Positions 17,763 through 61,423 of a DNA stretch of 64,000 nt are shown piece after piece. The stretch is from an uncultured Candidatus Saccharibacteria bacterium. GTDB lineage: Bacteria; Patescibacteriota; Minisyncoccia; Phycocordibacterales; JACOZG01. The stretch spans positions 144,065-208,064 of the forward strand of contig CAYUVV010000001.1 in the NCBI GenBank assembly GCA_964448295.1, written 5' to 3'. Position 1 is the stretch's first letter. Every line of letters begins with the position of its first letter. Under the pieces are notes generated by a model, which made no database searches, was not told where the DNA came from, and was given only the letters and a program-made list of their open reading frames with translations. The translations under genes were made by a program, and so were the position numbers.

Positions 17763-17780
17763 AAGTTGATTAGTCGCCCC

Positions 17781-17865
17781 GCTCGGACGCGGCGGAATTC
17801 CTCCCACACCCCCCCCTTCCGCCGCGCCCTCGCTTGGACGGACGGAATTTTTGGCGGCGGCATTG
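17781..17865 (+). repeat. Structured ~85-bp repeat, copy 1 (20 bp after tRNA-Ala, about 80 bp upstream of the C-protein gene)
   Basis: GCTCGGACGCGGCGGAATTCC-TCCCACAC-C8-TTCCGCCGCG-CCCTCGCTTGGACGGACGGAATTTTTGGCGGCGG; 10-bp perfect inverted repeat CGCGGCGGAA/TTCCGCCGCG. Confidence 0.8.
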
Positions 17866-21871: not shown

Positions 21872-21958
21872 CAATGCCGCCGCCAAAAATTCCGTCCGTC
21901 CAAGCGAGGGCGTGGCGGAAGGAGGGGGTTGGGGGGAGGAATTCCGCGCCGTCCGAGC
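21872..21958 (-). repeat. Structured ~85-bp repeat, copy 2 (inverted relative to copy 1; 6 bp after the stop of the Z1-like gene)
   Basis: Reverse complement aligns with copy 1 over its whole length, with poly-C tract variation. Confidence 0.8.
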
Positions 21959-50909: not shown

Positions 50910-52208
50910 ATGGAAACAATGGCAATACCCCGCCGAAATACGGCGACTCCCGGCCTTCAAGAACAGGAGCCTATCCGCTATTGCCTCTACGCCCGCAAAT
51001 CGAGCGAAGCCGAAGAGAAACAAGCCTTGTCCATCGATTCTCAAATTAAGGAAATGCTGACCATTGCCCAGCGCGACGGTTTAAACATCATCGAGATGTA
51101 TCGTGAGTCGCACTCAGCCAAAGACTGCGGCCAACGGCCAGTTTTCAACAAATTGCTCATTGATATCCGCGAGGGCAAGTTTAACGGTATTCTCGTCTGG
51201 CATCCCGATCGGCTGAGCCGGAACGCCGGCGACCTTGGTACGGTTGTGGATCTGCTTGACCAGAAGAAATTAATCGAGATTCGCACTTACAGCCAGCGTT
51301 TTACCAACAACCCGAATGAGAAATTCCTGCTCATGATTCTCGGCTCTCAAGCCAAGTTGGAAAATGATAACAAGAGCGTCAATGTAAAGCGCGGCCTCAA
51401 GACCAAGTGCGAACTCGGGCTTTGGCCCTCGGTGGCGCCAACCGGATACCTGAACTCCAAGAACAAAGATCAGAAAGGCGTGGTGTTCGTGGATCCGGAT
51501 CGAGCGCCAATTATCAAAGAACTTTTCCGCAAAGTGGCTAATGAAGGCTGGAGCGGCCGAAAGATTTACCGATGGCTCAAGGAGATTAAATTTGTCACCC
51601 GCACCGGCAAGCCGCTCACCTTGAGCAATGTTTATGTGATTCTCAACAATCACTTCTACCACGGCTCGTTTGAGTATCCCAAACAGAGCGGTCGCTGGTT
51701 CCAAGGCAGGCATATGCCGCTAATCTCCAAAGACTTGTTCGATGAGGTCCAGAAACAGCTCCACCTGCAAATTAAGGCCCACAATCGTAACAAAGAATTC
51801 GCCTTCACTCGATTGCTTTTCTGCGGCGTCTGTGGCTCAGGCGTGACGGCGCAGGAAAAATTCAAGAGTTTGAAGGATGGCTCGATCGCCAAGTATATTT
51901 ACTACGGCTGTACCCGGGCCAAAAATATCAACTGCGAGAAAATTCTCATTGATCAGTTAACCAAAATCATTGACCAAATCGATCTCGATCGCTCGGGCAT
52001 CAAGAAAAAACTTGGAGCCGAGATCGAGCGGCATAAAAAATTTCACTCAGGGATTATGGGAAAAAGCGAAGAAGCCTATCGCGCGAAAGATGCCGATATC
52101 AGAAATTACGCGAAGTATCTGCTAATCGAAGGATCGATATTTGAGAAGCGGGATTTGCTGGGGTGTTTGAAGAGTAAGCTCTCTCTTAAGAATAAGATAA
52201 TCTACTAA
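50910..52208 (+). CDS. Large serine recombinase (resolvase N-domain + recombinase domain + Zn ribbon)
   Basis: YARKSS catalytic region, DRLSRN, C-terminal Cys cluster CGVCGSG...YYGC. Confidence 0.85.
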   Translation: METMAIPRRNTATPGLQEQEPIRYCLYARKSSEAEEKQALSIDSQIKEMLTIAQRDGLNIIEMYRESHSAKDCGQRPVFNKLLIDIREGKFNGILVWHPDRLSRNAGDLGTVVDLLDQKKLIEIRTYSQRFTNNPNEKFLLMILGSQAKLENDNKSVNVKRGLKTKCELGLWPSVAPTGYLNSKNKDQKGVVFVDPDRAPIIKELFRKVANEGWSGRKIYRWLKEIKFVTRTGKPLTLSNVYVILNNHFYHGSFEYPKQSGRWFQGRHMPLISKDLFDEVQKQLHLQIKAHNRNKEFAFTRLLFCGVCGSGVTAQEKFKSLKDGSIAKYIYYGCTRAKNINCEKILIDQLTKIIDQIDLDRSGIKKKLGAEIERHKKFHSGIMGKSEEAYRAKDADIRNYAKYLLIEGSIFEKRDLLGCLKSKLSLKNKIIY

Positions 52209-52963: not shown

Positions 52964-53233
52964 AAAATTTCTCAGATAATTTTGACCCCTCTTGGTCCTT
53001 CGATACTTTTCTAGACTGCTGTCCCTCCTGAATGAAATCCGAACTTTTTACCAAACGAACCCTGACGAATGAAGCCGCCCCGCCGCCGCTCGCTGACGCT
53101 CGCCACCGAGCAAAACACTCTTTACATTTTCTGATTTGCGCGCGCCCCCGAAAAATTTTTCCAATTAAGGAAAAGAGTATTTTGCTCGGCTCTGCTCTGA
53201 ACGAGCAGGCGGCGGGGCTGGCCTCTATTTTTT

Positions 53234-53316
53234 GCTCGGGCGCGGCGGAATTCCCCCCACACCCTCCTTCCGCCGTGTTCTTGCGGGAACGGACGGAATT
53301 TTTGGCGGCGGTTATT
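53234..53316 (+). repeat. Structured ~85-bp repeat, copy 3 (overlaps stop of helicase gene)
   Basis: GCTCGGGCGCGGCGGAATTCCCCCCACACCCTCCTTCCGCCGTG...GGACGGAATTTTTGGCGGCGG. Confidence 0.8.
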
Positions 53317-56300
53317 TTGATTTTAGCATCTCCTTTATCTCCTGAACACACTGCTCCAAATCATTTTGGAGTTGATACACCCAAAATCGTTTGACTTGCC
53401 ATCCATGCATGATGAGATGCTGATCTCGTTTCAAATCCGAGAGCAAGCGACCTCCGTCAATGTCGCGATGCCACATCTCGCCGTCAATCTCAATATCAAT
53501 CGGGATTTCAGAATCAAGAACGGCAAGGTCAAGACGATATTGGTACAACGGATATTGCGAGATGGTTCTGATACCTTCCCGCGCGAGGGCGTCATACAAA
53601 ACTTCCTCCCACGGCGACTCAAATTTTCCTCCGCTTTTATTTTTATTTTCCGGTTCCAACTCCTCGACATACTTCACGAAATCCGAAAGATGCGAGATGC
53701 CGGATTGAGCGCAAGCAACCCTGTCGCCGACAATATGCAATTCCGCCCTCGCACGGGTAATCGCGACATTGAATAGATTTACCGTATTTCCCAAAAATCC
53801 TAACGAGCGTTGCTGGATTTTACGCGATACAACCGGAGAGAAAATCATAATGTCGCGTTGGTCGCCTTGATATTTATGCGCGGTATCAACTGTAAAATCC
53901 AGTTTTCGCAACTGCGCCGCGTCTATCTTTTGCTCTACCAAATCTCTGATTTTGTTCGCTTGCTCTCGGAAGGGCGTAACAACGCCGAGCGATACGGAGT
54001 AGTCGTCGCCGTGGGCGAAAATTCTTTTGATAATTTCTTCAATCAACGCAACAATCGCTTTCGCCTCGTCCAAATTGTATGCGCTTCCAGCAGATGGCCG
54101 AATAACCTCGCCGACGACATCGTGCCAAATGAGCGCGTCTGGATGTCCGGCGCCGCGCAACCTACGATAATCCGTCCAAACGCTCAATTTCCCGCCATAA
54201 AACTTTTTGTTGGAGAAACCGATAATTTCCGCGCGGCTCCTGTAGTGTTCGAGTAAGTGAACGAATTTTGCACCCGTTCCTACAACGCTTCGCGCAAGCT
54301 CAAAAAGAGAGTTTATGCTGTAAAGAAAGCGTTGGTCGTCGGTCGAGGTTAGGCCAATCTGCCGTTGCAACTGTTGATCGTCCGCGCGATGCAAAAGAGA
54401 GATGTGCGTGAGCTGATTTGGGTCGCCCACAATCACGGCTCGCTTCGCGCGATAAAGTAGCGGAATTGCGGACGCGATGTCGCATTGAGACGCTTCGTCA
54501 ATAATCACGACATCAACGGCTCCTGCGCTCAACGGGAGTGCGTGACGGACGGATAGATTTGTAACGGCCATCGCCGGAAACGCCCTTACTACGCTTTTGA
54601 ACATTCGCTTGCGCTCATTTCTCAACTCCTCCGCAAGTTCGCCTCCTGTTACATCACCCTCTAATCGGCGCACGATACTCACATAGTCCGCAATATCGCG
54701 CCGTTCCTTAGGGCCAAGCGACTTGAGACGACGCTTCATCAACGCATCAACATATATGACGCTAATATCTATCGCGCGTTCTTTGCTTTTTGTGATTCGC
54801 TCCCGCAAAACTTCTACGCGCGCTTCGTTCTCATTCTCTCGCACAATTCCTAGAAGTTCAGATTGATTATCAATCCACTTTTTCAAGGCGCGGCAAATTG
54901 TCAAAAGCTCTCGGCAGTTATGAACGGAATTGAGCGAGATATTGATGCCTTCGACTGGCGCAAGCAGAAGTAATGATTTTGCTGTTTCCAAAACTCGTTT
55001 TTCCAGCGTAGAACCGAAAAGCGCAAGAACGCGCGAAATAAAACCGGGTCCCTCGTCAATTTCCTTTACTAAGCGACCCAACGAAACAAGAGTGTTATAA
55101 AATTCCTGTTTCCCTTCGATTTTTTGATACGAGTTGAGGTTGCGAGAAATTGACGAAGGCAATTCCGCTCTGACAGATTCAAGCGCGGCATCAAGGCGAC
55201 TTATGCGATTCCTGCGATCAAGAATGCGGAATAGTGATTGTTGCGCCTCTTTTTCTTCCGAACGCACTACCTCAAGCTCTTTTTTGTATTCGCCAATTTC
55301 TCGCTCTAGCGATTGGCTGTTGTAGCTTGAGGCGCGTTCAATCGCGGACAAAAGTGCTTCCGCAAATTCAATCTCGCGTTCCTTCTGCCCATATTTGAGA
55401 ATGACCGGCTCGGATTGAAGTCGCAATAATCTTTCAATGACGACATCAACCGCTTTGTGGTTTTTACTTCCGAATAAAACGCTTTCGTTATGAAGTAGCG
55501 CGTTGGCAATAATATTAAGAACGATTTGCGACTTTCCGGTTCCGGGCGGTCCGGTAATGACACTAACCGTATTGTTGAATGCACTTTTGACCGCGCCTCT
55601 TTGTTCATCGTTCAGTCCGGTTATTTCCAGCAATCCATCGCCGTTGTCCTCTTTGACTTCTGCGTTTCTATCAAGAATTACGCGCCATACATCATTCGGA
55701 GCGGTGGTATCTCGTAATTCGCTCAATTCTTGCTCTAGCCCACCAGTGTATTTTGAATCCGCGCTCCGAAAAATAACGCCAAGAGGCAAAACACCGCCCT
55801 CCGCTTTTAATTCTGTTGTTTTGCCGCCTAGAATATCTTTTGAGAAAGGAACCTCTTGCGGCAAAAGCTCGGCGAACGCACCCAAAATAGTTTTGAGATT
55901 TTGCCCTCTGCTTTTCTCATCGTCCCATGATTCCAAAACCGCTTCGGCGATTTGCTTTCTTTCCTCAACGCTCGTCAGTAAACTTTTATCTGTGAGAAAA
56001 GCAGAGTTGATTCTCGGTCTATCAGATTGCAAAACGAAAGCGTGTCCGGTTTCTGTTTGAACGAGGTCTATACCGAAAATCAGGATGGGCTGGATTATTT
56101 GACCCGACCATCCTCGTCGCGATTGTTCAATATGTTTAATGTGGCAAGGAAAGCCATAGAAATACGAAAGTGGACTGCGGCTCCATCGGGGACCGCTGAT
56201 GAACGCTTGGATTTTTTCATTTTGACCCTCAAATTCCAGTTTTTCCTTGCCGGACGCAATCCACTCTTTTTCCATTGCAGGCACCTGCAAAAACTCCACT

Positions 56301-56500
56301 CCATCTTTTGACGAGTAGAGTGTGATTTCTCCGGAGTTCTCAACGGAAATGCATGAGCCGTAATATTTGAGGAGTTTTTGCCAGCGTGAGGATGTAGGGT
56401 CGGTGTGAACCACCGGAGTCTTGTTTTCTGTTTTTCGGGCGGTTGCCGTTCGCCTATATCCGCCTCGACCTCTGTATTTGTTGCGATAGTAGGTTGCCAT
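53312..56500 (-). CDS. SF1 (Upf1/DNA2-like) helicase fused to C-terminal DUF559/Vsr-like endonuclease domain; N-terminal about 300-aa DUF4011-like region
   Basis: Walker A ITGPPGTGKSQ, Walker B VVIIDEASQ, motif VI region TAHKYQGDQRD, C-terminal YRLDLAV...IEIDGEMWH...D...K nuclease-like core. Confidence 0.8.
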   Translation of the reverse strand: MATYYRNKYRGRGGYRRTATARKTENKTPVVHTDPTSSRWQKLLKYYGSCISVENSGEITLYSSKDGVEFLQVPAMEKEWIASGKEKLEFEGQNEKIQAFISGPRWSRSPLSYFYGFPCHIKHIEQSRRGWSGQIIQPILIFGIDLVQTETGHAFVLQSDRPRINSAFLTDKSLLTSVEERKQIAEAVLESWDDEKSRGQNLKTILGAFAELLPQEVPFSKDILGGKTTELKAEGGVLPLGVIFRSADSKYTGGLEQELSELRDTTAPNDVWRVILDRNAEVKEDNGDGLLEITGLNDEQRGAVKSAFNNTVSVITGPPGTGKSQIVLNIIANALLHNESVLFGSKNHKAVDVVIERLLRLQSEPVILKYGQKEREIEFAEALLSAIERASSYNSQSLEREIGEYKKELEVVRSEEKEAQQSLFRILDRRNRISRLDAALESVRAELPSSISRNLNSYQKIEGKQEFYNTLVSLGRLVKEIDEGPGFISRVLALFGSTLEKRVLETAKSLLLLAPVEGINISLNSVHNCRELLTICRALKKWIDNQSELLGIVRENENEARVEVLRERITKSKERAIDISVIYVDALMKRRLKSLGPKERRDIADYVSIVRRLEGDVTGGELAEELRNERKRMFKSVVRAFPAMAVTNLSVRHALPLSAGAVDVVIIDEASQCDIASAIPLLYRAKRAVIVGDPNQLTHISLLHRADDQQLQRQIGLTSTDDQRFLYSINSLFELARSVVGTGAKFVHLLEHYRSRAEIIGFSNKKFYGGKLSVWTDYRRLRGAGHPDALIWHDVVGEVIRPSAGSAYNLDEAKAIVALIEEIIKRIFAHGDDYSVSLGVVTPFREQANKIRDLVEQKIDAAQLRKLDFTVDTAHKYQGDQRDIMIFSPVVSRKIQQRSLGFLGNTVNLFNVAITRARAELHIVGDRVACAQSGISHLSDFVKYVEELEPENKNKSGGKFESPWEEVLYDALAREGIRTISQYPLYQYRLDLAVLDSEIPIDIEIDGEMWHRDIDGGRLLSDLKRDQHLIMHGWQVKRFWVYQLQNDLEQCVQEIKEMLKSK

Positions 56501-56502
56501 AA

Positions 56503-56709
56503 TTATGAAAGAAGATTGCGCGGATCAACGCCGAGGGCATCAGCCAATCTTTCGAGATTTTTAACTGTAGGATTTCTAATTCCGCGCTCTATTCCGCTAA
56601 TGTAGCTCCGGTGAACGGCAAGTTTCTTGGCGATGTCCCCTTGGGACATACCTTTTTGCAAGCGGATTTTTCGTAGTTGCTCTCCAAGTTTTTTAGTAAG
56701 TGGCTTCAT
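56503..56709 (-). CDS. XRE-family HTH regulator (immediately upstream of, and co-directional with, the helicase)
   Basis: HTH_XRE; start set to the internal ATG (MKPLTKKLGEQL). The longer track ORF uses a non-ATG start that runs into the repeat. Confidence 0.7.
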   Translation of the reverse strand: MKPLTKKLGEQLRKIRLQKGMSQGDIAKKLAVHRSYISGIERGIRNPTVKNLERLADALGVDPRNLLS

Positions 56710-56797
56710 AGTGTCTTGTTGATATGTTAGCACTTGTTGCACTATTGGTCTATAGAGTATTATAATACTCGTATGGTAATCGCCGCTCCCGCAAGAA

Positions 56798-56870
56798 CAC
56801 GGCGGAATTCCCCCCACACCCCCCCCCCTTCCGCCGCGCCCTCGCTTGGGCTGGCGAATTTTTTGGCGGT
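56798..56870 (+). repeat. Structured ~85-bp repeat, copy 4 (about 85 bp upstream of the HTH gene start)
   Basis: CACGGCGGAATTCCCCCCACAC-C10-TTCCGCCGCGCCCTCGCTTGGGCTGGCGAATTTTTTGGCGG; 5' end diverged. Confidence 0.75.
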
Positions 56871-57589
56871 TAACTAATCCTTACTATCTCCGCCAGCAAA
56901 ACATCCATATCATTTGAAAAATTTATCTGCGTTTTGTTTGGCAGAGATTCCTTATTCCTAATTTTTGTATGTAGGTATGAGTCAGCAATTTTTCGAGACG
57001 AGTTCTCCAAGTGAGACATTGAATCTTTAAAACTCTTTGTGCCGTAATTGTTCGCGACTTCCGTAAAGGTATTTAGATTAAAAATTGGCGGAACATGATC
57101 AAGTATGGCTCGCACCAATAAAATAACCGAAATATAGTTGCCCACAGAGTAGGCGTGATCCAACTCTGAAAGCATTTGAATCAACCTTGAAAAGTCGAGC
57201 CGTCCTTTTTTCTTTTTCAAAGCTTGAAAACGTTTTTTGTCTATGAATCCTCCATCGACGGTAACGAGCTTAATTTTACTATCCTTGAAGCACTGGTTGA
57301 GTTGAAAGTCTTTCTCTACCTCCGCCAATTTATCGCTCTTAAGCCGCCATTCATCCTTTGCCACTTTGGAAGTTCGCCGATCTTTCGCTATCGCTGAGCG
57401 TAGTTTTGTAATATTCGGACTTCCAAGGCCAGCGCTTTTAAAATCGGATATAACTTGTTTTAATGTTGCTCCGGTGTCTTTTTTGACTGCATAAAAATAC
57501 AAAAAGCAGACCGCTCTATCGGCAATTTTTGTAGCTCGTCGGCTCATGCAATGAGCAAAGGATTCAGTGATCGCGCTATTTTTCTTCAT
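56870..57589 (-). CDS. Hypothetical protein, paralog group member 3 (shared about 50-aa domain at N-terminus)
   Basis: 239 aa; ADRAVCFLYFYAVKKDTGATLKQVISDFKSAGLGSPNITKLRSAI aligns with segments of the two upstream proteins. Confidence 0.5.
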   Translation of the reverse strand: MKKNSAITESFAHCMSRRATKIADRAVCFLYFYAVKKDTGATLKQVISDFKSAGLGSPNITKLRSAIAKDRRTSKVAKDEWRLKSDKLAEVEKDFQLNQCFKDSKIKLVTVDGGFIDKKRFQALKKKKGRLDFSRLIQMLSELDHAYSVGNYISVILLVRAILDHVPPIFNLNTFTEVANNYGTKSFKDSMSHLENSSRKIADSYLHTKIRNKESLPNKTQINFSNDMDVLLAEIVRIS

Positions 57590-58067
57590 CTATTTTCAAA
57601 AGAGATTCAAAATATTTTGCTCCCTTTCTATTCAATTTATAAACTACCGCCTTACCTTTGACGCGAGTTGAATCTCCCTCCAGATATTTCTGTAGCGATT
57701 CTGTAATCGCTTTAGACACATTTGGCGTTTTAACTCCAACCCGTAGCTCAGAGGTAATCCTTGCAACATCACCGGTAGTAAGCCCTTGCCGGGGGAAGTA
57801 TTTATAGTAAATGTAGAATGGCAATAAGACTCTGCCGGGGATTGAAACTTTATCAAGTATTTTTTCCTCAATTTTGTCCGCATCTTCGCAATTCTTAATC
57901 TTGTTCACGATGGCTAAAATATGATCATTCGAATCATTGCTAATTTTAGCTGGCTTCTTGACTAAAGACTGTTTCTGTTTTGTCGGAGTATTAAACAACG
58001 CCGCAAGGCATTCGTCCGCTAAAGACTTTATCTCATTGAGCTTTGATACAAGTTTGTCGTTCGTCAT
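57576..58067 (-). CDS. Hypothetical protein, paralog group member 2
   Basis: 163 aa; coiled-coil N-terminus; shared domain PGRVLLPFYIYYKYFPRQGLTTGDVARITSELRVGVKTPNVSKAI...GKAVVYKLNRKG; Lys-rich. Confidence 0.5.
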   Translation of the reverse strand: MTNDKLVSKLNEIKSLADECLAALFNTPTKQKQSLVKKPAKISNDSNDHILAIVNKIKNCEDADKIEEKILDKVSIPGRVLLPFYIYYKYFPRQGLTTGDVARITSELRVGVKTPNVSKAITESLQKYLEGDSTRVKGKAVVYKLNRKGAKYFESLLKIDEEK

Positions 58068-58069
58068 AT

Positions 58070-58597
58070 TTATTTCGTCGTTTTATTCTTCTTGCGGCGA
58101 GTAGTACTTTTGTATTTGCTTTTCTTGACCATATCCTCGGGAAATCCACCCTGCAAAACTTTCATACCGGTATTAGTAATGTAAAAACTGCCTTTCTTTA
58201 CCGGATCCGGTGCTATCCAGCCACTGCTTATAGCCCACTTAAAATCGCGTGTCAGGTTTGCCGGAATCAGTTCTCCAGCGTCACGAAAAAGACTTTTAAT
58301 TTCGCCCTGCTGAAAGGAGTCTTTATTGTGAAATTCTTTAAGGAACCCCGCCAATGTAAGAATCTTGTCGGGATTGCGCTTAGGTGCGTGCCTGTTTAGA
58401 TACTCTGCCGCAGATTCCCTTTGTGAACCAGTGCGACGAATAGATACTGGCGGCGCTGTCTTCACGACGCCATGTTCTTCGCCCCCAGCCGAAAGACAAA
58501 GAGCCATTATTTGTCCTGCAGTGTTTTCGTCAATCAATTTCTCATAAGATAGCCCAGCACCCTTGATGGTTATCTTTATTTTTGCTTGCTTATCCAT
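58070..58597 (-). CDS. Hypothetical protein, paralog group member 1
   Basis: 175 aa; shared domain PDKILTLAGFLKEFHNKDSFQQGEIKSLFRDAGELIPANLTRDFKWAI...KGSFYITNTGMK; basic tail KKSKYKSTTRRKKNKTTK. Confidence 0.5.
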   Translation of the reverse strand: MDKQAKIKITIKGAGLSYEKLIDENTAGQIMALCLSAGGEEHGVVKTAPPVSIRRTGSQRESAAEYLNRHAPKRNPDKILTLAGFLKEFHNKDSFQQGEIKSLFRDAGELIPANLTRDFKWAISSGWIAPDPVKKGSFYITNTGMKVLQGGFPEDMVKKSKYKSTTRRKKNKTTK

Positions 58598-58599
58598 AA

Positions 58600-58680
58600 G
58601 TTAAATGGTTATATGGTTAATAATAATTTGTCAACTTGTCTACAAGTTAGCAAAAGTGGCCACAGTTGTCAAGATCAACC
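58600..58680 (-). promoter_or_regulatory. Candidate promoter/operator for the paralog trio
   Basis: Minus-strand TTGACA hexamers at two positions, weak -10s (TATAAC), and an imperfect palindrome TGTCAACTTGTCTACAAGTTAGCA. Confidence 0.35.
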
Positions 58681-58681
58681 G

Positions 58682-58706
58682 AAAAAGCGGCCGATAGCCG
58701 CTTTTT
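58682..58706. terminator. Bidirectional rho-independent terminator separating DUF262-HNH gene from the trio
   Basis: AAAAAGCGGC-cgat-AGCCGCTTTTT. Confidence 0.6.
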
Positions 58707-58721
58707 CAGAGAATAAAAGTT

Positions 58722-59831
58722 TTAAATCCCCGACTTTGTTCGATTATGTTCCCTGCATAGCATTTGGCAATTTTCTGCGGTTGTTTTACCGCCCTCGTGC
58801 CAAGGGGTAATATGGTCGGCTTCCATTTCCTCAATATCCCACTTTTGCTTTTCTTTCTTCTCTTTTTTGCACCACGGACAAATGCCATTTTGCCGCTCGT
58901 ACGCTTCGCGCTTCATTTTGTCGGTAAAAGCGCGGATTGAAAGATATTTTTCTTGTCTTGTTAAAACATACGGATAGATGCCGGATTTTTTGGTAACATC
59001 CTCGTCCTGCATCAATTCTTTGATTTCAGCTTCCAATTTCGCAGGATTTAATTTTTTGTCTTTGAATTTGTTGTAAAGTTCGCCCCAGTTCACATGCGCC
59101 ATCTCCTTGCGGTAATTAGGAAAAGTTTTGCGCACCCAAGCAATCACATCTTGAAAGTACTCCCAAAGCTCATCAGCATTTTTGTCGTGCTGATGGCGGG
59201 CCATATAGTCCTCAATTTTACCCTCGTTTATCCACGAAAGCGCAGTTTCGAGATATTCCTGACGGATCGGCGAACCGCTCAAAAGCGCACCGCCGTCATT
59301 GGCGAGCAGATACGCCGCGCAGTTTGATTTGCTGAATTTGAGTTTTGCGTCAGAAAGCCACGGGCCGGTATAAACCGCGTTGCGAATTTCTTGATCGGTC
59401 AATTTTTCTCCGGCAATGTTAATGATCCTGAACCAATCCAGCCGCTCTTTGTCTGTCCCTTCGCAGAAATAAATCATGAGTTCATAATCCAAAATCTGGT
59501 TTTGTTCTTCTTTGGTGAGATTGTGAAAATATCTTTCGTTCAGCGAGAAATCGCCGGTTACATACTGCCCGATGCTGATGGTGCGCTGTTGGCCGTCCAG
59601 CACTTCATAGCCGCCGTCTTCGCGCACCATCCAATACATCACATTGAGCGGAAAGTTGTTTTTGATGGTTTCAATTACGGCATTGCGCTGTTTTTCTTTA
59701 TAAACGAATTCACGCTGATATTTGGGACGGATATCCAGCTTGCCGTCATATGCCACAACGCCCTCCTCGGCGCTGTCCTTGTAGCCAGCAATCACTTTAC
59801 GGATCGGAATTTTGTGGAGTTCAATTTTCAT
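58722..59831 (-). CDS. DUF262 (ParB-like) + HNH nuclease (GmrSD/SspE-like architecture), candidate restriction component
   Basis: DGQQRTISIGQYV DUF262 motif; C-terminal CPWC...ADHITPWHEGGKTTAENCQMLCREHN HNH. Confidence 0.8.
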   Translation of the reverse strand: MKIELHKIPIRKVIAGYKDSAEEGVVAYDGKLDIRPKYQREFVYKEKQRNAVIETIKNNFPLNVMYWMVREDGGYEVLDGQQRTISIGQYVTGDFSLNERYFHNLTKEEQNQILDYELMIYFCEGTDKERLDWFRIINIAGEKLTDQEIRNAVYTGPWLSDAKLKFSKSNCAAYLLANDGGALLSGSPIRQEYLETALSWINEGKIEDYMARHQHDKNADELWEYFQDVIAWVRKTFPNYRKEMAHVNWGELYNKFKDKKLNPAKLEAEIKELMQDEDVTKKSGIYPYVLTRQEKYLSIRAFTDKMKREAYERQNGICPWCKKEKKEKQKWDIEEMEADHITPWHEGGKTTAENCQMLCREHNRTKSGI

Positions 59832-59832
59832 A

Positions 59833-60906
59833 TTATTTCTTTACTTTCTTATTTCTAATTACAACACGAACATAAGTTGGCTTACCATTTATTGCCCCTT
59901 CCTTATCCTTGATAAGGCCATGCTCTTTGTATGGAACATTGCTATTGCGTCTAATATCATTGGCACTTAATATCTCAAACTTGTCGGGATTGTATTTAGC
60001 AAGAAAAGTAATCGGCACTCCCATTGCACCGTCATAATCCATTGGAATATCAGAATATCTTGAAACCTCTATAGCATCATAATTGTCATATTTTGGGTAT
60101 TCTTTTGGGTTGTATTTTTTATATAAGGTGAGCTCCTCGTGTCTCTTTGTTGTATCTAAATTGGTGTACCAAAGTATTCTCCCCATACTGAAGTATTTAA
60201 TGCCATTTACAATTTTCTTTCTTGATTCTGTGGGTATGTCATAATCCATCGGCACCTGAAACCATTTTGTGCCACCATTGTCGTAGCCCAGCCATAATTT
60301 ATTGCTTTTTATAAGTTTAAAAATCTCTTTGTAGGTAGAGGCATTTTGATCGCCAAGAATAAGAAATTTTTTATTGTATTCCACAAGTTGGGCAACATAC
60401 TCGCGAAAAAGCGAAAACGGCGGATTCGTTACTACGATATCAGCCTGTTTCAGCAGTTCTATACACTCGTTGCTCCTAAAATCTCCATTGCCTTTAAGCG
60501 GTGTGGCGGCATTTTTATTGTATTTTAATAAATGTTTTACATCTTCAAGATCAATCGCTCCGTTTTTGTCAGAATCCGGCACTTCGTTAATTTCAATCTT
60601 CATTGGCTCTTTGCCTTTTGGCTTCAAGCCCGCTATTTCAAAGAGCGGCAGTTGATTGCCGACTATTGGAGACGGGCTGTAACTTGTGGTGATAAGTTTC
60701 TTTAATCCGAGTGCGTTGAAGTTGCCCGCGAAATATTTGAAAAAATTGCTCTCAAACGGGTCATCGCAATTGCAATACACAATCTTGCCGCGAAATTGAT
60801 TTTTGTAGTGTTTGAGCTCTTTCTCAATATCAACAAGCTGGGTGTAAAACTCGTCTGTTTTAGCGCTTCTCGCTGAATGTAAGTTTTTGTTTAATGATTT
60901 AGTCAT
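59833..60906 (-). CDS. DNA N6-adenine methyltransferase, gamma-class-like (NPPF)
   Basis: N-terminal DEFYTQ (motif X-like), VVTNPPF motif IV; 2 bp from the DUF262-HNH gene and 3 bp from the C-protein gene. Confidence 0.65.
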   Translation of the reverse strand: MTKSLNKNLHSARSAKTDEFYTQLVDIEKELKHYKNQFRGKIVYCNCDDPFESNFFKYFAGNFNALGLKKLITTSYSPSPIVGNQLPLFEIAGLKPKGKEPMKIEINEVPDSDKNGAIDLEDVKHLLKYNKNAATPLKGNGDFRSNECIELLKQADIVVTNPPFSLFREYVAQLVEYNKKFLILGDQNASTYKEIFKLIKSNKLWLGYDNGGTKWFQVPMDYDIPTESRKKIVNGIKYFSMGRILWYTNLDTTKRHEELTLYKKYNPKEYPKYDNYDAIEVSRYSDIPMDYDGAMGVPITFLAKYNPDKFEILSANDIRRNSNVPYKEHGLIKDKEGAINGKPTYVRVVIRNKKVKK

Positions 60907-60908
60907 AA

Positions 60909-61121
60909 TTACTTCTGTATTAAATCATCAACACCAACGCCGAGCGCATCCGCGATTTTGCGGAGCGTCTCAACGCGGGGGTCAGGTGTTGAACCGGTTT
61001 CTATCTTTGCAATGGTGTGTAAAGTAACACCGGCCAATTTGGACAGCTTATCTTGTGAAATACCGAGCTTGTCTCGATATTTCTTTATGTTCTTTGCTAT
61101 GGTGGATAATTCTTTTGCCAT
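60909..61121 (-). CDS. XRE-family HTH, probable controller (C) protein
   Basis: 70 aa; shares ISQDKLSKLA...LHT(V)..I...D....E(T)...IA.AL.V.VDDL with the 17947 HTH. Palindrome AGTAAAGTTTTACT 4 nt upstream of ATG. Confidence 0.8.
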   Translation of the reverse strand: MAKELSTIAKNIKKYRDKLGISQDKLSKLAGVTLHTIAKIETGSTPDPRVETLRKIADALGVGVDDLIQK

Positions 61122-61352
61122 ACCAGTAAAACTTTACTATAATGTGTTTAGCGTGGTATTATTATTGTATGAAAAATAATCCTTTTCGTCAATCTGTTTT
61201 AGGGAGTTCCCTAACCTTGCCCGCGCACTGGGCTGGTGGGGCAATGGCAAGAAAAAATAACTCCGCCAAAGCGAGACCAGCCCCGCCAATGGCGGGGCTG
61301 GGCGAGCGAACCCTCTCGTCTGAAAATTCGCGGTTTGTTTTGTCAGAAGCTG

Positions 61353-61423
61353 CTGCCAGACTTGGATTCGAACCAAGATTCACGGCTCCAAAGGCCGCTG
61401 TCCTACCATTAGACGATCTGGCA
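61353..61423 (-). tRNA. tRNA-Gln (anticodon TTG), no encoded CCA
   Basis: Hand-folded: acceptor TGCCAGA/TCTGGCA (U1-A72 as in bacterial tRNA-Gln), D-stem GTCT/GGAC, anticodon stem GCGGC/GCCGT with loop CTTTGGA, T-arm CTTGG-TTCGAAT-CCAAG. Confidence 0.8.

Follow-up and report, generated by a model that had tools for sequence, protein, structure and literature searches.

How does a DUF262-HNH nuclease work when its gene directly follows that of a DNA methylase? This question is raised by a 64,000-nucleotide (nt) stretch of DNA from an uncultured Candidatus Saccharibacteria bacterium (contig CAYUVV010000001.1, positions 144,065 to 208,064; hereafter the window), in which three adjoining genes encode a small regulator (C), a methylase (M), and a nuclease (R). 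A preliminary description, made from the letters of this DNA, considered the three genes to be an uncommon restriction-modification (R-M) unit in which cleavage is blocked by modification and expression is under C-protein control. In this study, we consider C-M-R to be one operon and a modification-blocked Type II R-M module that resembles BanLI, a system of Bifidobacterium animalis subsp. lactis (M.BanLI/R.BanLI), and we assign this reading a probability of roughly 0.78. The features of the unit are as follows (aa, amino acids; NTP, nucleoside triphosphate).

58722-59831, minus strand: R gene, 369-aa nuclease with an N-terminal DUF262 domain (ParB/Srx-like NTP-binding fold), a helical middle, and a C-terminal zinc-finger HNH domain
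59833-60906, minus strand: M gene, 357-aa N6-adenine DNA methyltransferase of the M.EcoRI family (PF13651)
60909-61121, minus strand: C gene, 70-aa XRE/HTH_3 regulator of the controller type (HTH_3, PADLOC Control_protein)
61125-61138, minus strand: candidate C-protein operator, inverted repeat AGTAAA-GT-TTTACT (sequence)
61164-61192, minus strand: predicted sigma-70-type promoter TTGACG-17-TACAAT, 5′ of the C gene (consensus scan, 10/12)
58679-58709, minus strand: terminator-like hairpin with a 14-pair stem and a T run, directly 3′ of the R stop codon (terminator scan)

The methylase, the nuclease, and their linkage

As the preliminary description stated, the three genes are co-directional, encode proteins of 70, 357, and 369 aa, and carry an XRE domain, the motifs DEFYTQ and NPPF, and a DUF262 domain (DGQQR) joined to an HNH domain. 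They are also closely packed, although, as read from the sequence, 2 nt (60907-60908) separate the stop codon of C from the ATG of M and 1 nt (59832) separates the stop codon of M from the ATG of R, rather than 2-3 bp. The predicted promoter and terminator of the consensus and terminator scans enclose C-M-R, and the hairpin at 58679-58709 is the predicted end of the transcription unit. Because promoter-type matches are at least as frequent in shuffled sequences, the promoter at 61164-61192 is to be read as a prediction only; its sequence is also kept in the related loci L011 and L061.

The methylase is covered over its full length by the Pfam family EcoRI_methylase (PF13651, E 4.6e-141) and matches the PADLOC model MTase_II (E 5e-127). 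It is 46% identical to M.EcoRI from end to end (E 3e-102), and its motifs DEFYTQ and DIVVTNPPFSLFREY align with the equivalent motifs of M.EcoRI, including NPPF. This match came from a plasmid search, in which small E. coli plasmids such as pU90-3 carry the gene beside one annotated as 'type-2 restriction enzyme EcoRI'. Judged by its sequence, M is a genuine DNA adenine methylase, with the family membership and the catalytic motifs expected of a Type II system. The earlier assignment to an R-M unit with a DNA adenine methylase is therefore supported by the likeness to M.EcoRI, and the profile of an RNA or protein methyltransferase, which would have counted against that assignment, did not appear.

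In the nuclease, Pfam recognizes GmrSD_N/DUF262 at residues 34-154 (E 2.4e-16) and HNH (PF01844) at residues 318-366 (E 3e-9), with DGQQR at residues 79-83 and DH at residues 339-340. The PADLOC model PDLC03418 (REase_II), which is labelled as a Type II restriction endonuclease (REase), covers residues 1-367 of 369 (E 6.6e-131). R thus matches a profile of the Type II class, and M and R are separate adjoining genes, as is usual for that class. NCBIfam holds a model for neither M nor R, and the PDB contains no chain that resembles the whole R protein. An AlphaFold model of R built from 42 sequences reached a mean pLDDT (predicted local distance difference test) of 86.8. Foldseek comparisons of this predicted structure relate the N-terminal domain to the CTP-binding domains of ParB/Noc and to sulfiredoxin, with SspE and BrxU as its nearest structural relatives, and the C-terminal domain to the Gme HNH nickase. 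Furthermore, in 41 R homologues of 37-58% identity, the pocket residues Q39, R40, D79, G80, Q81, Q82, R83, N138, Q147, E148, and N151 and the HNH residues C318, D339, H340, N354, and C359 are invariant or at least 90% conserved, so that the motifs QR, DGQQR, QExxN, DH, and N and the four cysteines are invariant or nearly so. These conserved residues indicate that both centres, the DUF262 pocket and the HNH site, look functional, and the HNH and ParB-like modules of the preliminary description are intact in R.

Evidence that M and R belong together comes from their linkage. Related loci (given L numbers) were the best 80 of 389 species-representative genome stretches that encode an R relative, and they were drawn from many phyla. 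Of the 80 loci, 76 have an EcoRI-family methylase upstream of R, and in the remaining four R is at a contig end; the two genes are therefore linked in all 76 assessable loci. From this we conclude that the nuclease apparently cannot be kept without the methylase, which fits an R that would be dangerous in the absence of M.

The same linkage bears on the relation of R to GmrSD, BrxU, and SspE; the preliminary description had noted that DUF262-HNH proteins are better known as GmrSD-type or SspE-like enzymes. R shares with them an N-terminal DUF262 domain of the ParB/Srx-like fold with QR and DGQQR, which is typical of the GmrSD family, as well as a C-terminal nuclease of the His-Me-finger type, and they are its best structural matches. 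However, the comparison is imprecise. GmrSD, BrxU, and SspE have about 560-590 aa, DUF1524, and a large linker, whereas R has 369 aa and only an HNH domain according to Pfam (PF01844/PF14279); they stand alone without a cognate methylase gene and act on or sense modified DNA, whereas R is always linked to a methylase. We consider it very improbable that R is a modification-dependent (Type IV) nuclease like GmrSD whose neighbouring methylase is simply unrelated or an orphan. The DUF262 domain would suit such an enzyme, but M adjoins R in several gene orders and on several types of replicon and is only 1 nt from R in this operon, Pfam finds no DUF1524 in R, and an enzyme that cut the product of a co-translated methylase would be lethal.

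The preliminary description considered this organization to be uncommon, and this view can no longer be held. A word-indexed protein search with R returned at least 8000 matches, of which the top ones (85-93% identical) came from Patescibacteria, Omnitrophota, and Chloroflexota, and an exhaustive search of 50%-identity representatives returned 5535 clusters at E <= 1e-3, of which 509 reached E <= 1e-30. Plasmids of Firmicutes, Actinobacteria, and Proteobacteria likewise carry the M-R pair (38-61% identity), as does the Flavobacterium phage laban6-1, and in Ornithobacterium rhinotracheale the order is reversed, with R before M. The organization is common and widespread, and it has already been catalogued as Type II R-M, as the existence of the PADLOC profile attests. 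The family is thus large (several hundred 50%-identity clusters), and C-M-R is a further member of it. The reviews on Type II, Type IV, and DUF262 enzymes that we consulted do not mention the architecture of a methylase plus a DUF262-HNH protein, and our literature search found no biochemical description of the nuclease of this family.

In about 15 relatives, additional genes separate M from R or C from M (L006, L013, L014, L019, L024, L031, L032, L041, L043, L067, L076, L079, L080, and L081). The inserts include a recurring 200-aa T5orf172/MUG113 protein, DUF2130, RhuM, an AAA_21/AAA_15 ATPase, and Hypoth_Ymh. In this R-M module, the gene junctions are hot spots of insertion.

As a general expectation, restriction enzymes should diverge faster than their methylases, and the pattern in the clade compared here is the opposite. 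Compared with the window, the related loci have a median aa identity of 86% for R (nonsynonymous divergence, dN, about 0.10) and of 69% for M (dN about 0.24), and synonymous differences are saturated for both (proportion of differing synonymous sites, pS, 0.77-0.81). Because the loci had been picked by their similarity to R, the comparison was repeated all-against-all for 68 loci (2278 pairs). The median identity was then 82% for R and 63% for M, R was more similar than M in 99% of the pairs, and the two identities were poorly correlated (r = 0.22). Among the plasmid-borne relatives, which cover a longer range, R and M have diverged about equally. Within the clade, R is markedly more constrained than M, and M and R partners seem to have been reshuffled. 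Recent spread as the cause of the high R identity is ruled out by the saturated synonymous sites. Both catalytic centres are under purifying selection, as judged by the invariant motifs and, for R, by the low dN beside saturated synonymous sites.

The regulator and its candidate operator

The C protein matches HTH_3 in Pfam (E 1e-15) and Control_protein in PADLOC (E 1.2e-7), and it is a small HTH protein at the head of the system, as is expected of a controller. When a profile made from the three XRE proteins of the window was used for a search, 17 of the 63 assessable relatives, which span at least two lineages, had a co-directional C homologue upstream of M. The C regulator is therefore an optional part of the system.

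The preliminary description reported a palindrome 4 nt before the C ATG. An inverted repeat, AGTAAAGTTTTACT, is indeed present at 61125-61138, but it consists of two 6-nt arms with a 2-nt spacer and is not a perfect 14-mer palindrome, and it ends 3 nt before the ATG. The repeat overlaps a -10-like TATAGT (61136-61141) and occurs once in the window. Repeats with AGT/ACT half-sites were found 0-6 nt before the homologous C genes of L011, L061, L014, L065, L069, L075, L017, and L030, where they usually overlap a TATAAT-like box. The operator role of the repeat gains support from these comparable repeats at the same position. By eye, the other two XRE genes of the window have a similar layout, with ATTATA-TAG-TATAAT before 17947 and GAGTATTATAATACTC upstream of the ATG at 56709.

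The position of the repeat suggests how C might act. It sits downstream of the predicted distal -35/-10 and over the proximal TATAGT, and C binding at such a site would repress. In systems of the PvuII, AhdI, and Esp1396I type, C is co-transcribed with R and activates and then represses from two upstream C-boxes, and M has its own promoter. The unit shares with these systems a small XRE regulator that heads the operon and an inverted repeat that lies by the regulator's own start and overlaps a -10-like box. However, the gene order here is C-M-R, and only one repeat is present, on the downstream side of the predicted distal promoter, so that the classical scheme of paired operators, activation followed by repression, co-transcription of C with R, and a separate M does not apply. 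The likeliest role of C, as far as the sequence indicates, is negative feedback on the whole C-M-R operon and not the classical delayed activation of R. The claim of C-protein control thus keeps its regulator and its repeat, and it is weakened by the scarcity of C among the relatives and by a repeat that lies downstream of the predicted -35/-10.

Two further sites and a tRNA gene lie near the start of the operon. The gene for tRNA-Gln is at 61352-61423, just 5′ of the C-M-R unit. On the plus strand, the promoter-like site TTGCCA-17-TATAAT (11/12, 61115-61143) holds the inverted repeat in its spacer, and its -35 shares positions with the start codon of C; transcription from it would run away from the operon and antisense to tRNA-Gln, and the site may be either a chance match or a divergent C-controlled promoter. 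On the minus strand, the motif GGGCAAC-N5-6-GGAACTCCC at 61203-61225, which has the form TTAGGGA-AC-TCCCTAA in the window, precedes the -35 of the C promoter by about 10 nt. This motif is kept in L011, L013, L017, L030, and L065 and partly in L061, L069, and L075, and the C proteins of the loci that share it are just 56-91% identical. Its role may be that of a second operator, or it may mark the boundary of a cassette.

Comparison with known systems and the proposed mechanism

From the gene order, the protein families, the conserved motifs, the strict M-R linkage, and the fold, all of which were observed or computed, we infer the following mechanism. M would set an N6-methyl group on the adenines of a short, specific motif in the host DNA, and the DUF262-HNH protein would cut DNA without this mark at its HNH site (beta-beta-alpha-metal, stabilized by zinc). 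The ParB/Srx-like N-terminal domain would bind and probably hydrolyse an NTP, and this NTP switch would control dimerization, engagement with DNA, or licensing of the nuclease, by analogy with BrxU, SspE, and GmrSD (reviewed in PMC10952713). The 70-aa XRE protein would bind the repeat, which overlaps the proximal -10-like box and the beginning of the C gene, and thereby repress the operon. The junctions of 1-2 nt, which lack clear ribosome-binding sites, would couple translation and hold R low relative to M. By analogy with the related enzymes, a requirement of R for an NTP stands at about even odds, and given the conserved pocket, R may depart from the rule that Type II enzymes need only Mg2+. 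A ParB-like NTP pocket fused to an HNH domain in a methylase-linked enzyme makes this directly testable.

BanLI is the nearest characterized parallel. According to the published descriptions, an M.EcoRI-like methylase is followed by a DUF262 nuclease of about 43 kDa, the system is of the Type II class, and methylation shields incoming DNA. The REBASE Type II REase Ban8145ORF124P (RTCAGG) is a B. animalis gene that carries the label 'DUF262 domain-containing protein' (PMC13091528, 2026). M.BanLI was aligned with M.EcoRI and methylates one strand of RTC(m6A)GG (m6A, N6-methyladenine), and R.BanLI, of 43.5 kDa, is encoded downstream of it; RM.BanLI in E. coli lowered the efficiency of plating of P1vir to about 0.1, and pre-methylation by M.BanLI raised plasmid transformation 1.8-fold (PMC3990576). 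The two systems also differ. BanLI has a phage-type integrase upstream and no C gene, whereas the window unit has C, and the one-strand motif RTCAGG has been assigned to BanLI, whereas none has been assigned to the window unit. A plasmid of B. choerinum carries a truncated R relative beside an EcoRI-family methylase, and this relative aligns with residues 108-366 of the window R at 41% identity; when the B. choerinum fragment was used as a query, no protein entry under the name B. animalis was returned. The EcoRI system is a parallel for the methylase, which shares with M.EcoRI the Pfam family, the motifs, and the identity given above. However, the pU90-3 neighbour named as restriction enzyme EcoRI is unlike the DUF262-HNH protein, EcoRI has no C protein, and on pU90-3 R precedes M.

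Several points weigh against C-M-R as a BanLI-like module of this kind. The apparent placement of BanLI in this exact family rests on published descriptions, with the truncated B. choerinum relative as the supporting sequence evidence, and BanLI itself restricts weakly and methylates only one strand, behaviour that is not explained by an orthodox Type II scheme in its simple form. Three quarters of the relatives have no C gene, at least one repeat such as that before C was found in 18 of 100 shuffled sequences, so that the inverted repeat alone is statistically weak, and one C-M-R operon gives no evident delay of R relative to M. In addition, Markov observed/expected ratios of 4- and 6-mer palindromes indicated general palindrome avoidance in the window and no standout motif, and the same was found in 664 kb comprising the window and the 80 related loci (GAATTC 0.75, CAATTG 0.68). 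Site avoidance was therefore rejected as a route to the recognition motif.

The weak restriction and the one-strand methylation of BanLI are among the facts that suit a mechanism like that of SspE, in which DUF262 would read m6A as 'self' and tune its NTPase, and the HNH domain would nick or cut the invader without a strict cleavage site that is sequence-specific and blocked by methylation. SspE and BrxU are close to the N-terminal domain of R in structure, and SspE requires the host's own DNA modification to work (PMC9646914, PMC10952713). The much greater conservation of R than of M, with its poor correlation, would also be odd if both proteins read an identical motif. Nevertheless, we regard modification sensing of this type as decidedly improbable: the HNH domain of R is PF01844 and not DUF1524, R has 369 aa compared with about 560 aa for SspE, REBASE and PADLOC class the family as Type II, and the benefit of M.BanLI pre-methylation to transformation is the behaviour of a methylation-blocked enzyme.

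How one methylase suffices is a related problem. The authors of BanLI attributed its one-strand methylation to the loss of a second methylase (PMC3990576); in the related loci compared here, one methylase is the norm of the family. We tentatively propose, as a rather unlikely possibility, that the DUF262-HNH enzymes form a distinct mechanistic class of restriction enzymes, in which a ParB-type nucleotide switch (NTP-dependent dimerization, clamping, or sliding) serves communication between sites. If true, this would explain the self-protection afforded by a one-strand methylase at an asymmetric site, as in BanLI, the identity of about 82% of R across phyla while M drifts, and the single methylase as the norm in thousands of genomes, and it would parallel the logic of Type III enzymes with unrelated parts. 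The NTP pocket joined to an HNH domain, the greater conservation of R than of M, and the single methylase make the family attractive for further work, which could settle one-methylase self-protection of the BanLI type.

Cassette context and the hairpin element

The C-M-R unit lies in an array of cassettes bounded by a hairpin element, which is context and stands outside the R-M mechanism. The copies in the window are as follows.

17778-17865, plus strand: hairpin/inverted-repeat element, GC-rich, about 90 nt
21872-21958, minus strand, inverted: hairpin/inverted-repeat element
53231-53311, plus strand: hairpin/inverted-repeat element
56783-56869, plus strand: hairpin/inverted-repeat element that closes the C-M-R cassette (repeat families D1/D2, inverted pairs I2/I8, covarying stem)

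The element has the invariant core GCGGAATTCCCCCC-N3-6-CCCCCCTTCCGC, and its stem covaries, with compensatory changes in 7 of 15 pairs. In the window, every copy adjoins the stop codon of a block's last gene, and the blocks that the element bounds start with a small XRE (C-like) gene. It also lies downstream of R in L005, L007, L010, L013, L026, L038, and L075 and occurs in L008. It had no Rfam match at the gathering thresholds and was not found in the literature searched. We rejected the possibility that these elements are integron attC sites, which have the core-site consensus RYYYAAC/GTTRRRY: no such core sites were seen in the copies examined, and the elements occur as long terminal inverted repeats.

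The cassette that contains C-M-R, block (b), also includes three open reading frames (ORFs) of 175, 163, and 239 aa (56870-58597, minus strand), which lie between R and the hairpin element and have their own promoter-like site. These ORFs were rejected as parts of the R-M module, since they belong to no Pfam family and have no homologue in the 80 related loci; the trio is also found behind an identical R gene in two other public contigs. The next cassette, block (c) (53312-56817, minus strand), begins with an XRE gene (PADLOC Control_protein, E 5e-18) that overlaps the start of a helicase-nuclease gene. The latter encodes a 1062-aa protein in which a superfamily 1 helicase (AAA_11/AAA_12) is fused to an MTES_1575/DUF559 nuclease, with partial similarity to the anti-phage proteins MkoC, Hhe, and ProA. 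Block (c) is probably a second regulator-led defence gene, to judge from these matches. The locus thus shows how defence genes are packaged in Patescibacteria, in regulator-led cassettes bounded by a conserved hairpin element.

The copies at 53231-53311 and 56783-56869 have exchanged their outer arms (A-core-B′ and B-core-A′, inverted pair I8), and the 25 nt at 53268-53292 are 96% complementary to 56783-56807. An insertion of block (c) through recombination inside the core would be expected to leave such exchanged arms, which resemble the attL/attR sites that would arise if a circular cassette of XRE plus helicase-nuclease had recombined into a resident element. About 1 kb from the cassette array, the plus strand encodes a large serine recombinase with Resolvase, Recombinase, and zinc-ribbon domains (50910-52208), and 8 of the 80 related loci have a homologue of it (29-81% identity) no more than 4 kb from the M-R pair (L050, L045, L013, L040, L008, L023, L025, and L061). 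This proximity suggests that the serine recombinase mobilizes these cassettes.

The mobility of the pair raises the question of whether C-M-R is mainly a selfish addiction module, which stabilizes its carrier cassette, plasmid, or phage by post-segregational killing, with phage defence as a minor by-product. The M-R pair occurs on plasmids, in a phage, and in inverted-repeat cassettes, frequently close to a large serine recombinase; T5orf172 and RhuM, further genes of selfish appearance, have been inserted between M and R; BanLI restricts only about 10-fold; and purifying selection on R is very strong across phyla. Addiction is nonetheless compatible with an R-M mechanism and bears on the selective benefit only, and the adjacent cassettes with other defence-type genes fit a defence island. 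We consider addiction as the main role to be improbable and retain the BanLI-like Type II module as the preferred reading.

Beyond the related loci, a scan of metagenomes for the hairpin core found at least 120 stretches. Among the metagenome loci (L091-L170) are many segments of 2-6 kb between inverted copies of the element, with terminal repeats that are identical or nearly so over about 100 nt. Their cargo includes R-M and defence-like genes, such as an XRE gene with T5orf172, a Tsp45I REase, an N6_N4 methylase, and AAA_15, and also, for example, a permease. A C-like ORF is present in 42 of these 80 loci; 24 start 84-327 nt downstream of the core, 22 in the same orientation.

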